DNA of 64,000 nucleotides from Squalus acanthias (lineage: Eukaryota). The position numbers and the translations under genes were made by a program. Below are positions 8,291 to 53,995 of the stretch, one piece after another. The stretch lies in the NCBI GenBank assembly GCA_030390025.1, contig CM059431.1, positions 130,698,001 through 130,762,000 on the forward strand, in the 5' to 3' direction. Every line of letters starts with the position of its first letter. Positions within the stretch are counted from its first letter, which is position 1. The notes below the pieces were generated by a model, which ran no database searches, had not been told where the DNA came from, and worked only from the letters and a program-made list of their open reading frames with translations.

Positions 8291-8957
8291 TCAGAGCTCC
8301 GGCTTTGAATTCTGGGTTGACATCCAGTGGGATATTCGTGACCGGTGGGTGTGGGAGCCAATAAAACCCTCTCGCCGTATAGGACTAACCACCTTATTGG
8401 CTGGTATAAAGATGGTTACGGCCATGGAAGGAGCGTTAACGCGGCCAGTCAGACTGTTAATCAGCCTGTGAATCCTCCCACTACTTCACACTGTTCCCCA
8501 AAGAGAACAGCAAGAAGACACAAAAAGAAGAAGATTGGAATCTGCAGCCGACCCCCACCTAATAAGTAGCCAGGAACCAGACAATCCCTCAACCTCCACA
8601 GAAACACAGACTGCCAGTAGGGGAGAGGTTAGAGAGAACCCTGCATAGAGGCTTCTAAACCATTGTAGCCACGATGCATTCTACAGTCTCTCAGGAGAGC
8701 AGAACGTGCCAGACCTCCGGCCTTCCCATTCAAAGCACCACACCAGTGGAACATGGGAGGTGACACCAAGCTGCCCAGGAACAAGCTCCAGACTTGCAGT
8801 CAGTAACAGCTTCCTGCTAGGAGCAAGCTGCCACGAGAGGACGGTCACCTCAGTCCCATGACCCTTTTATAAAGCATGAGCAGCCAACCTAGGAGAAGCA
8901 CTAGAATAGGTGATAGAAAGGTATGTGTAGCCTTCCAGGGAAAGCACATGTTAGAAA

Positions 8958-10066
8958 ATGAATAACAACAGAAAATGCTGGAAATACTCAGCAGGTCAGG
9001 CAGCATCGAGGAAAGAGAATCAGAGGGCTGGATTTTCCAAGCCCCGAGGAGGCGGGTATGGAGGCGGGACAGCCGGTAAACTCGGAGAAAGTGGGGGCGG
9101 ATGGCAAAGCCGCCCCCATCCCGCCTCCGTGCCCTTTTGCCAGGAGGCGGGAAGATGTGCAGCTTCGGGTCCCGTCTCCTGGAGGCAGGAAAGGCATTTA
9201 ATCCTTTTAACTGCCTGTTAACAGGTAGTTAACAGGCAGAAAAAAGCATTAGTGCCAATTTTCCTTCACAGGTGAAGGCTTCCCATCTGCGGCGGTCGGA
9301 GGCACCTGGAAGTATGGTGTAGAGGTGAGTGATGGGTGCAAGTGTGGAGTGGTAAGTATGAAAGGTGAGTGATAAGTTTACAAAAGTGTTCACTTACCTT
9401 GTTTTCTTCCTACAGCCTTCAGCCGCGCTGGATCGGGAGAGCCGACATCCTCCTTGTCAATTTCACAGACTGGCTGTTGGAACCTCCGTTCCAACAGTCA
9501 TGTGAAATTTACAAATTTGAAAGGTTTGATAAGTCCTGAACACAAGGTCTCATCAAACTAAAAAGAATGTCAGTGTTTGACAGCGCTATCAAATGCTGAC
9601 ATTTCTTCTTTCAAGAAGTCTTGACAGATAGCACGTCTGACGTTGACGTGATCTGTCAGACTTCCTCCCTAACTGGCCTGCTGAGCTCAATCAGAGGAAA
9701 ATCCCTCTGGTTGGTCAGGCAAGGATGGAGGCGGGACATTGACACGACAAGCAGTTGTCCCGCCTCCAACTCGCCTCCATTCACAAAATCCAGCCCAGAG
9801 TCAACGTTTTGAGTTGGGAACCCTTCGTCAGAACTGGAAAAGGTTAGAGAAGAGAGATTTTTAAGCAGGGGCAGGGAGGAGGGGAAGAAAGAATAAAGGG
9901 AAGGTCTGTGATAGGATGGAAGGCAGGAGAGATTGACTGACAAAAGGGATGATGGTGCAAGGCATAAAGAGAGGTAATGGGACAAGTTAAGAAACAAAAG
10001 ATGACTCTAGATGACCTCTCTTTATGCCTTGCACCATCATCCCTTTTGTCAGTCAATCTCTCCTGC
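8958..10066 (-). mobile_element. Penelope-like retroelement terminal fragment with inverted 5' duplication, interrupted by a MITE
   Basis: Shares the gatgctgcctgacctgctgagtatttccagcattttctg tail and hammerhead-like motif with 27919-28330, 36555-36657 and 53255-53360; 53-bp inverted repeat at 9923-10066. Confidence 0.65.
9025..9796. mobile_element. Harbinger-type MITE (GGGCTGGATTTT TIR group)
   Basis: TIR GGGCTGGATTTT...AAAATCCAGCCC; TSD AGA (9022-9024, 9797-9799). Confidence 0.9.
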
Positions 10067-10485
10067 TTGACACCATCCAGGACAAAGCAGCCCGCTTGAT
10101 TGGCATTCCATCCACCACGTTAAACATTCATTCCCTCCACCACCGGCCCACCGTGGCTGCGGTGTGTACCATCTACAAGATGCACTGCAACAATTCGCCA
10201 AGGCTTCTTCGACAAACCCACGACCTCTACCACCTAGAAGGACAAGGGCAGCAGGCGCATGGGAACACCATCACCTCCAAGTTCCCCTCCAAGTCATACA
10301 CCATCCTGACTTAGAAGTATATCGCCGATCCCTCATAGTCGCTGGGTCAAAATCCTGGATCTGCCTCCCTAACAGCACTGTGGGAGTACCTTCACCACAC
10401 GTACTGTGGCGGTTCAAGAAGGCGGCTCACCACCACCTTCTCAAGGGCAATTAGGGATGGGCAATAAACACCTAGGAATGAATTT
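10067..10485 (+). mobile_element. 3' fragment of CR1/L2-group LINE (same family as 23487-27140)
   Basis: LDTIQDKAARLIGIPSTTLNIHSLHHR..VAAVCTIYKMHC; matches the reverse complement of 23490-23940. Confidence 0.85.
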
Positions 10486-27140: not shown

Positions 27141-27918
27141 ATTTTGTCTTCTCAGTATTTACTTTCAATCCATATTCCAAATGTTATGCTCTCGAATATC
27201 TCTTATATCCTTCTTGTATTGGCAACCAGTACTGCATCATCGGTTTACATTAGATTGCTTATTCATTTTCCATTAATTTTGAATGCAACTTCTTAATCAT
27301 CCAGATTATATCTAATAATAAATTCAGAGAATATGTTAAAAAGATTGGGTGACAAAACATGTCCTTGTTTTACTCCTCTTCAGATCTTTGTCTAATTTTT
27401 TAACTCATTATGAACTTGCAGTGCTGCTTATCGTTTCCAGTTAATATTCCTAATTAGTCTCCTGTCTTTCCCATCAATTCCAACTCTTTGGAAGATATCC
27501 ATTGTCGTTTACCCTGCTAAACATTTTATCAGAATGCATGAAACATAGCGGATAATTTTAACCTCACCTGCCCAGTGGAAAATTGATGGGATTGAGTTGG
27601 CCCCTGTTTTACACCCCGCCCAACTTTACTTTCTAGGGTAAATATCCTGCATGGTTGGGTGCCCTGAAATAGGCCATGAAATTTGATCCCCATAACACTA
27701 ATAAAAATCTCAGAAACAACGTGTAATAAAAATTGTATTTGACTTAGTCACCATAAATCACTGGCCCTCCTTAAATATTGGGGTAGAAATTGGACTATTG
27801 CGCCTGTTTTACACCTGTAAAATGGGCGCTATAGGTCCAATTTCAGGGACGAACATTCCACACTCAAAGGATGCCTGAAAATCTGACCTGATATTGGATC
27901 AAGCTATTTTTCAGACAT

Positions 27919-28330
27919 GATACGATAGCAAAATACTGCGGATGCTGGAAAATTGAAACAACAACAGAAAACGCTGGAAAAACTCAGCAGGCCAGGCAAC
28001 ATCCGTGGAGAGAGAAACAGAGTTGACGTTTCAGGTCGAAACCCTTCGTCAGAACTGAGAAAAAAGCAGGAAATGAAACAGATAAAAAAGCAAGAGGGAG
28101 GCTGGGGGGAGGAATAAAAGAACAAAAGGGGTGGTCTATGGTAAGTAGAGACATTAAGAGATGCTCAAGGCAAGACGAGATGGTAATAGGACAGGTTAAG
28201 AAACAAAAGGTGGCTCAGAAGTGTGAAGTGTGAAATGCTGGCAGAATGAGAGACAGCTGCTGTGGGGGGAGAGAGAGAAAAAAAAGGGAAAAGGCACAAA
28301 CCAAAAGGGTGGATAAAATGTATATATATA
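27919..28330 (-). mobile_element. Short Penelope-like retroelement insertion carrying a hammerhead motif
   Basis: Flanked by a 14-bp direct repeat TATTTTTCAGACAT (27905-27918, 28331-28344); homologous to 8958-10066. Confidence 0.7.
28021..28057 (-). ncRNA. Minimal type I hammerhead ribozyme motif
   Basis: Minus strand: cAGUU-CUGACGA-A-GGGU(UUCG)ACCU-GAAA-C-GUC-AACU, giving the core boxes, stem II with UUCG loop, 4-bp stem I and a GUC triplet. Confidence 0.65.
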
Positions 28331-36127: not shown

Positions 36128-36554
36128 TATATGATTTACAATACAGTGTGCACTGCCCATCCATCACAGTGGATACAATCATTTTGAAAAAATTGGAGCT
36201 CCCAGTGTTAGCTGCCATCACAATTGAGGCGACATTATTCATGGTGCATCAGGAATTTTAATTTTCCCTTCTTTCTTTGCTTTTCTTCATATGCTTATCA
36301 AGGTGAAGGATATGAGGAGTGGGGCTAGCACTGACAGTTGAGCTGTAACAATGGCATTATTGGGATAATTTCACAAAATTGTGCTTCTGATGAGGATTCT
36401 CACTTGCCAGGATCACAATTTGTATGCATGCTTCCTAAAATTTTCTGTCCAAATGGTGTGCGCTCCCAGTGGATGAGGTCAGCAGATCAGCTATAGAAAG
36501 GTATCTAGAGGTGCAGGCAGTCACCAGAATAGCTAACAACCATACTAAAGAAAA

Positions 36555-36657
36555 ATTGAAATAAAAACAGAAAATGCTGGAGATACTCAGCAGGTCAGGC
36601 AGCATCTGTGAAGAGAGAAACGGAGTTAACGTTTCAGGTCGAGACCTTTCGTCAGAA
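36555..36657 (-). mobile_element. Penelope-like terminal fragment with hammerhead-like motif (36624-36657)
   Basis: Minus strand: UU-CUGACGA-A-AGGUC(UC)GACCU-GAAA-C-GUU-AACU followed by the shared tail. Confidence 0.6.
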
Positions 36658-53254: not shown

Positions 53255-53360
53255 CTTCCAGTTCTGATGAAAAGTCCTCAACCTGAAACACTAACTCTGT
53301 TTATCGCTCCACAGATGCTGCCTGATCTGAGTGTTTACAGCATTTTCTGTTTTTATTTCA
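53255..53360 (+). mobile_element. Penelope-like terminal fragment with decayed hammerhead motif
   Basis: cagtt-CTGATGA-aaagtcctcaacct-GAAA-cacta-act, then the gatgctgcctga...cagcattttctg tail. Confidence 0.55.
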
Positions 53361-53995
53361 AACCTCATATCTTGTCCATCACCAAGCCCACCTATTTCTT
53401 CCTCAGAACCTCCATTTCTACCTCACACCTACTGTCACTGAAACTTGTGTAACCTCTGTGCTCAGTTTCTCTAACACTTATCACTAGCTTCTCAAGCTCT
53501 ACCTTACACAAACTCCAAATTGTCCAAAATCCCTCCACTCAAATCCTATCCCATACTAAGTCTCTCTCACCTGCCACCTTCATCCTCATTGATATCTACT
53601 AACTTTCACATTGATTTCTAATCATCATCCTTCTTTACAAATCTCTCCTTGGCCTCTCCACCCTACCTCTGCAATCTCCTGCTCAACATCTCAGCCCACA
53701 CTCTTTACTCTTCTGATGTTAGCCTATTAAGTGTACGTTCCCCATCCCCCTCCACTGCATCATTGTTGGCAGAGCCTTCAGCCTTCATCGCCCTGCAGGA
53801 GCTCTTTTCCTCAACCCTTTGCTTGCTACTTCACTACCCTTTTCAAAAGGCACCTAAAATCGGATTCCTTTGGCCATGCCTTTAGTCATTTACCCTAACT
53901 CTTCTCTTAATCCTGCTCAGTGTTGATTTTCCTCCCTCTGTTCTGTCACGGACTTTGGGACATTTTTAGTTAGTTAAAGATGCTATATAGAGGTA
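53361..53995 (+). mobile_element. Highly decayed L2 3' region
   Basis: Pyrimidine-rich with residual similarity to the reverse complement of 11067-11765; ends tttgggacattt...aaagatgctatata. Confidence 0.5.

Follow-up and report, generated by a model that had tools for sequence, protein, structure and literature searches.

Does the hammerhead-like motif on the minus strand at 28056-28021 belong to an RNA module that spreads by itself, to a ribozyme that cuts a host transcript, or to the remains of a larger mobile element? We examined the window, that is, the whole stretch of 64,000 nucleotides, together with copies of the motif elsewhere in the genome. With a probability of roughly 0.88, the motif represents a type I minimal hammerhead that lies in the pseudo-LTR (pLTR) of a Penelope-like element (PLE), and the 412-bp unit around it is a 5′-truncated copy with a 14-bp target-site duplication (TSD), likely inserted by a reverse transcriptase (RT) and GIY-YIG endonuclease from uncut RNA.

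The motif and its insertion site

The initial annotation had spelled out a hammerhead with a predicted cut between 28025 and 28024, and the minus strand is identical to that reading:

28021..28056, minus strand: minimal type I hammerhead motif, read from the sequence and the published consensus
28056-28053 and 28024-28021, minus strand: stem I, AGUU/AACU, 4 bp, from the sequence
28052-28046, minus strand: core box CUGACGA, from the sequence
28045, minus strand: extra A after CUGACGA, from the sequence
28044-28041 and 28036-28033, minus strand: stem II, GGGU/ACCU, 4 bp, from the sequence
28040-28037, minus strand: loop II, UUCG, from the sequence
28032-28029, minus strand: GAAA, followed by C at 28028 (C-G palindromic stem III stub), from the sequence
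28027-28025, minus strand: triplet GUC, predicted cut 28025/28024, from the sequence

A structural descriptor containing both core boxes, stems I and II and the 15.2-16.2 pair matched the window once, at this motif, and gave no match in 300 simulated windows (order-2 Markov). Both boxes, CUGANGA and GAAA, are present in the copy, UH stands at the cut, and there is a palindromic 15.2-16.2 pair without loop 3. Its stem II opens with G-U, not with the usual, conserved G10.1-C11.1 pair, and its UUCG loop is closed by a U-A pair. A scan with the Rfam hammerhead models, which had been proposed as a check, found no match even at E<=10, as would be expected for a motif that has no stem III. Folding energy z-scores were not significant and no better than those of shuffles.

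The surroundings of the motif were resolved as follows:

27770..27904, strand not given: left part of an older dispersed host repeat (paralogs with 73-79% identity over most of the query)
27905..27918, strand not given: 14-bp target-site duplication at the 3′ end of the element, from empty-site comparison
27919..28330, minus strand: 5′-truncated Penelope-like element of 412 bp, comprising 3′ UTR/pseudo-LTR, hammerhead and tail, from comparison with relatives
27919..27954, minus strand: optional PLE tail of about 35 nt between two preferred 3′ ends, present in the window copy, from 3′-end clusters and published accounts (PMC11167929, PMC8557442)
28331..28344, strand not given: 14-bp target-site duplication at the 5′ junction of the element, from empty-site comparison

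The direct repeat 27905-27918/28331-28344 is perfect and encloses 412 bp. The insert was absent from all 19 paralogous copies of the host repeat. Left and right flanks were joined with no extra bases in 12 of these and with 1-2 nt in 4; two of the remaining copies lacked 9 nt, and one was poorly aligned, although it reads through by eye. In a contig from one of four runs (X15), 27904 is followed directly by 28331; 426 nt are passed over, and 14 letters at the joint can be assigned to either side. Because the 19 paralogs and the X15 contig are free of the insert, the 14-bp repeat is a true TSD, and the repeat-flanked unit proposed earlier is confirmed by its empty sites.

Relatives, ends and copy number of the element

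The window unit has no ORF of its own; it begins in a TA run about 17 nt after the position of the ORF stop in its relatives. The 14 longest matches among the 30 closest loci were translated, and 11 of them run upstream into the C-terminal GIY-YIG end of the element ORF, while 3 do not. Matches above the Pfam cut-off were obtained for RVT_1 (E=4.1e-7, locus L098) and GIY-YIG (E=1.2e-4, locus L096). A 759-aa stop-free frame in L118 carries RT and GIY-YIG regions, each just under the Pfam cut-off, together with DKG, YIDD and a CX4CxxC linker (CKRRRCNTC at 625). The 448-aa RT-region frame of L094 gave no RT match in Pfam. In two of 18 long loci (L220, L228) the ORF stands between direct hammerheads that are 3.1-3.2 kb apart. 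Downstream of the hammerhead, L220 and L221 continue through the tail into the ORF, the first long-ORF ATG lying downstream of the tail.

Since its relatives join an RT and GIY-YIG ORF and have hammerheads at both ends, the 412-bp unit is identified from sequence as the truncated 3′ end of an endonuclease-bearing (EN+) PLE of Neptune/Nematis type. The features of such elements were found in the family: a partial tandem pLTR-ORF-pLTR arrangement, inverted 5′ copies and an optional tail. The linker conforms to CX2-5CxxC, which would fit Neptune and is also shared with Nematis. The earlier proposal of a retro-insertion carrying a minimal hammerhead of Penelope type, its stem III palindromic, is thus borne out by the anatomy of the element, and the link to an RT and GIY-YIG ORF, which the initial annotation had suggested looking for, was found in the relatives.

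Some related loci have rearrangements of their own. In L091 (G000:C13:24423916-24426861) an inverted hammerhead pair occurs twice in identical form, at a distance of 2.9 kb; the intervening sequence has no long ORF, and the arrangement is probably a local duplication. The loci L098 and L102-L125, on small contigs and C29, are more than 20 near-identical copies of one 5′-truncated, 5′-inverted PLE insertion, and point to a large segmental or tandem gene-cluster duplication. Just downstream of an inverted PLE end lies an intronless 361-aa seven-transmembrane ORF (L100, 2714-3799; L101, 2549-3634), which we take to be chemokine-receptor-like. L101 also has a 388-aa ORF at 8712-9878, presumably a Harbinger-type transposase from its appearance.

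Copy numbers were obtained by pattern searches of the 3.7-Gb genome. A strict hammerhead pattern gave 46,283 matches, the reversed-pattern control none, and a 31-nt anchor downstream of the hammerhead 63,260. Two samples of copies were drawn, neither chosen by ribozyme sequence. Sample 1 was the first 100 tail-anchor matches on contig C1; sample 2 comprised 88 distinct copies of the window's own lineage, from 100 listed of 4,593 matches, after exclusion of 11 copies common to sample 1 and 1 that was not recovered. The 3′ ends grouped at two places some 35 nt from each other (43 and 46 of the 100 copies in sample 1, 34 and 41 of the 88 in sample 2), with preferred positions at about +70 and +105-115 from the cut.

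TSDs of at least 10 nt were found in 13 of 55 (sample 1) and 16 of 34 (sample 2) non-inverted copies with a locatable 5′ end, a test that left out 17 and 54 copies, respectively, as too long or inverted. The modal length was 14, in lengths that may contain 1-3 nt of chance overlap, and shuffled pairings gave none. The 28 inverted copies of sample 1, scored separately, yielded 1 match. The element therefore has a pLTR-ORF-pLTR anatomy with two 3′ ends, inverted 5′ junctions and TSDs of about 14 bp, and in its copies the hammerhead is still continuous with what lies 3′ of the cut.

The window holds three further degenerate copies of the PLE end. Two are short and tail-less, and begin at or just before the 5′ border of the hammerhead: one at 36552-36657 (minus strand), with an intact core and an apparent 12-bp TSD, and one at 53259-53361 (plus strand), which is decayed. 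The third (8948-9025 and 9796-10080, minus strand) is split 3′ of the cut by an insertion of about 770 bp, and its inverted 5′ junction near 9915-10075 gives spurious Rfam miRNA matches. PLE ends in L134, L135, L207 and at window 9025-9796 are split by another repeat with similar GGCCC-containing ends, which resembles the host repeat of the 412-bp insertion.

The initial annotation had also raised a self-cleaving RNA module spread by a retrozyme-like family. In that case the unit would stand for a non-autonomous family of retrozyme or SINE type, defined by a 412-bp consensus and spread by self-cleaved circular RNA. Four loci do match some 370-410 nt of the unit at 91-95%, and a 2026 preprint (bioRxiv 10.64898/2026.07.22.740005) reports PLE-derived non-LTR retrozymes in one chondrichthyan. 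Those same four loci, however, run upstream into the ORF; 5′ ends in the family are scattered rather than fixed at 412 bp, and the 3′ ends of copies lie at the PLE tail instead of the cut. Non-LTR retrozymes (PMC7229834; bioRxiv 10.64898/2026.07.22.740005) are likewise type I, PLE-related, noncoding and a few hundred bp long, but they are tandem units with a hammerhead in each, whereas the window has one hammerhead in a single unit between TSDs. A retrozyme- or SINE-like family is largely refuted by the ORF-joined relatives, the scattered 5′ ends and the 3′ ends at the tail, and we consider it very improbable; the unit is a truncated end of an autonomous element.

Minimal hammerheads in the pLTRs of metazoan PLEs were described by Cervera and De la Pena (2014; PMC4209133). 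The copies studied here agree with that description in being type I, with a short stem I, an extra nucleotide after A9, no loop 3, a palindromic 15.2-16.2 pair (C-G), C or U at 17 and a location in the pLTR; most are likewise single and truncated, with some opposite-strand pairs. They differ in number, with at least 46,283 here where that paper counts about 4,000 in coelacanth and 9,000 in Xenopus, and in stem II, which is shorter here (4-5 bp) and has A-U or G-U as its first pair where the published form has G-C. As two coelacanth rows of the same paper also deviate from G-C at 10.1-11.1, this pair was not treated as an exclusive criterion. The accessible part of its supplement file 2 lists no shark. 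In the literature as far as it was accessible, the one account touching PLE hammerheads of sharks or other cartilaginous fishes was the 2026 preprint, in which hammerhead repeats are counted for a single chondrichthyan genome and whose supplements may include this family.

The element shares with the EN+ PLEs Neptune and Nematis (Craig et al. 2021, PMC8557442) an RT followed by a C-terminal GIY-YIG, the CX2-5CxxC linker, partial tandem pLTRs, inverted 5′ copies, an optional tail of 30-40 bp and heavy 5′ truncation, an assignment made here from linker and domain order. Its TSD peak of 14 bp differs from the 8-10 bp of rotifer PLE examples (PMC3846280). As in Poseidon of Anolis (Frangieh et al. 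2024, PMC11167929), the hammerhead is followed by two 3′ ends that define the tail, the pLTR-ORF junction continues from the tail, and uncut RNA would be the insertion template; in the anole element two internal reverse-transcription start sites match the two 3′ ends. The Zn-finger-like linker motif found here gives a different clade signature, and the anole ORF starts in stem II whereas the first long-ORF ATG here (L220, L221) comes after the tail. By analogy with the anole element (PMC11167929), reverse transcription of the window copy would have been primed at the tail and would have stopped about 300 nt upstream.

Core variation and predicted activity

Core statistics were taken from 67 unbiased copies. 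The core boxes were intact in 47. Positions 15.2 and 16.2 were C in 63 and G in 61 copies, respectively, and the extra nucleotide between 9 and 10.1 was A in 65. The initial annotation had called this A unusual; it is in fact part of the published consensus CUGANGAH (PMC4209133). The triplet was GUU in 55 copies and GUC in 5, so that the GUC of the window is a minority form. Pair 10.1-11.1 was A-U in 34, G-U in 28 and G-C in 1 of the 67, and the UUCG loop goes back to a single lineage, in which a 5-bp stem II lost one C. Lineages with G-C at 10.1-11.1 occur among 1,012 C11.1 copies: G10.1 was present in 49 of 52 C11.1 copies listed from distinct GTTGAC lineages and in 26 of 48 other C11.1 copies (by eye), and no lineage with an A-C mismatch was apparent among C11.1 copies.

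Among many-copy subfamily variants, the free positions (N7, 10.1, loop II and 17) were non-majority in 115 of 402 cells and the core in 36 of 737; core letters were fixed across subfamilies other than a lineage with U4C. At one and the same CpG, the tolerated CUGAUGA (13,491) exceeded the G8A form CUGACAA (2,676), where neutral decay alone would give about equal numbers. Both the covariation and the CpG excess may go back to only one to three founder events each. Decay per copy was 4.9% in the core versus 5.1% in the downstream flank, and inserted copies therefore show no selection.

The U4C lineage has 1,663 copies genome-wide, with a short stem in 92 of 100 copies listed (by eye). It makes up 30 of 64 copies of the window's short-stem group in sample 2, long and short copies alike. 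A canonical core was therefore not needed to spread.

The predicted fold of the window monomer is dominated by pairing of the CUGACG core box with the cut site (-10.6 kcal/mol, against -4.1 for a hammerhead-like fold), and the same fold was predicted for 49 of 53 copies. In the window copy, C7 and C17 make the helix formed by core box and cut site a perfect one of 5 bp, and the pairs of stem I have probabilities of 0.02-0.11. The description of the ribozyme as intact-looking thus holds for the core letters but does not extend to activity, the core being buried in the predicted monomer fold. Published minimal hammerheads cleave weakly or only with protein, and the S. mansoni minimal-hammerhead monomer showed no cleavage; dimer cleavage of such motifs is summarised in a review (primary source, Lunse et al.). 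That the window copy is an efficient monomeric ribozyme cutting a host transcript is scarcely credible: the favourable GUC triplet and the intact core speak for it, but the monomer has no stem III, that of S. mansoni did not cleave, and the C7/C17 helix competes for both core box and cut site. As a single copy of uncertain promoter, it is likely a passive relic, predicted to be inactive. In tandem transcripts, the ribozyme would cut only as a dimer formed through the ACGU palindrome, or with the element's own protein. The hammerhead was probably kept in master elements for RNA processing, not for the insertion step.

A further reading is that the motif persists in this lineage as a vestige kept for some other role (core promoter, splice acceptor or protein-binding 5′ hairpin) for which cutting is no longer needed. 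The predominance of GUU, the A-U or G-U pair in place of G-C at 10.1-11.1 and the alternative predicted fold all point in this direction. So does the amplification of the U4C lineage, as U4C considerably lowers activity in vitro, although a viroid tolerates it (PMC3088659). Insertion of the anole element in vitro still takes place with core mutants, its cleavage needs protein, and no RNA-seq reads end at the hammerhead cut (PMC11167929). Loss of function is harder to reconcile with the failure of G8A to expand as the tolerated U7 has, with the lack of an apparent A-C mismatch lineage at 10.1-11.1 and with the fixed core letters of the other subfamilies. We regard a vestige as unlikely, though it deserves to be kept in mind.

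A separate ribozyme candidate lies on the plus strand of the window at 8408-8479, where the Rfam CPEB3 model gives 35.9 bits against a gathering score of 35 for an HDV-like ribozyme. A dispersed repeat, at least 330 bp long, carries it close to its 3′ end. This repeat has many copies at 91-95%, as judged from the 40 of 1,951 candidates that were scored, showed no long ORF linked to it in 10 loci, and may be a SINE- or retrozyme-like HDV family.

Where copies begin

The 5′ ends of copies cluster in the front half of the ribozyme, over two features of the minus strand:

28053..28058, minus strand: YCAGTT motif over stem I, likely an initiator (RNA start) or a 3′ splice acceptor, function inferred
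28041-28063, minus strand: 5′-truncation hot spot of the family, from 5′-end counts

The window unit, whose 5′ end is at -306 from the cut, is not one of the short hammerhead stubs. Ends 17-39 nt upstream of the cut were found in 37 of 100 copies of sample 1 and 23 of 88 of sample 2 (together 60 of 188), 31 of the 60 being inverted junctions. The 60 nt from -61 to -120 contained 1 and 7 ends, respectively. The corresponding rate ratios are 51 (p=3e-13) in sample 1, on which the bins were set, and 5.3 (p=3e-5) in sample 2, which is the fair test; these statistics treat copies as independent, though twin arms and one duplicate are not. Ends at the cut itself, where cleaved RNA would leave its footprint, numbered 5 of 188 within -3..0, at least one of them an inverted junction at the GTTAAC palindrome. 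The rate per nucleotide was 0.0069 at the cut, 0.0061 just upstream and 0.0015 just downstream.

The commonest 5′-end positions were -32 and -33, at YCAGTT, which we take to be an initiator-like consensus. TTAAA occurs about 30 nt upstream of it in most subfamilies and is absent in the window's lineage. The many front-half starts, set against the few at the cut, suggest uncut RNA beginning near stem I. An RNA that starts at stem I, with the 5′ pLTR primed internally, would account for the clustering. So would fall-off within the hairpin, or a 3′ splice acceptor, given that helix I of the hammerhead is where the D. virilis intron ends. No GT..AG joint supporting splicing at the CAG before the core was seen among 15 listed of 154 joints, and the loose ends there had no sequence in common. 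We found no published report of 5′ truncation at PLE hammerheads.

We propose, tentatively and at somewhat less than even odds, that the genomic copies record the RNA start. Transcripts would start at or just before the first base of stem I (YCAGTT), and reverse transcription, with the 5′ pLTR tail as its internal priming site, would copy the uncut RNA head, giving hammerhead stubs of 90-140 bp and twin-primed hairpins. The ribozyme would then be the 5′ leader of the template and dispensable for insertion, as the 1,663 copies of the U4C lineage may illustrate. If this is true, the role of the PLE hammerhead becomes directly testable through capped versus 5′-OH RNA ends.

Taken singly, the motif in the window is ordinary, a relic among tens of thousands from a ribozyme class already described. 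The fresh clues come from the family: many copies begin in the front half of the motif, and a sister lineage has spread with an altered (U4C) core. Its minimal hammerheads outnumber those counted in coelacanth and Xenopus (PMC4209133) five- to tenfold, and it is a test bed of some value, in which variants that were each amplified (U4 or C4; GUU or GUC; A-U, G-U or G-C at 10.1-11.1; stem II of 4 or 5 bp) could be compared in parallel assays. An RNA start site is predicted from the 5′ ends that cluster in the front half of the ribozyme, and this prediction and the variants, taken together, could settle whether PLE hammerheads must cut for the element to move.
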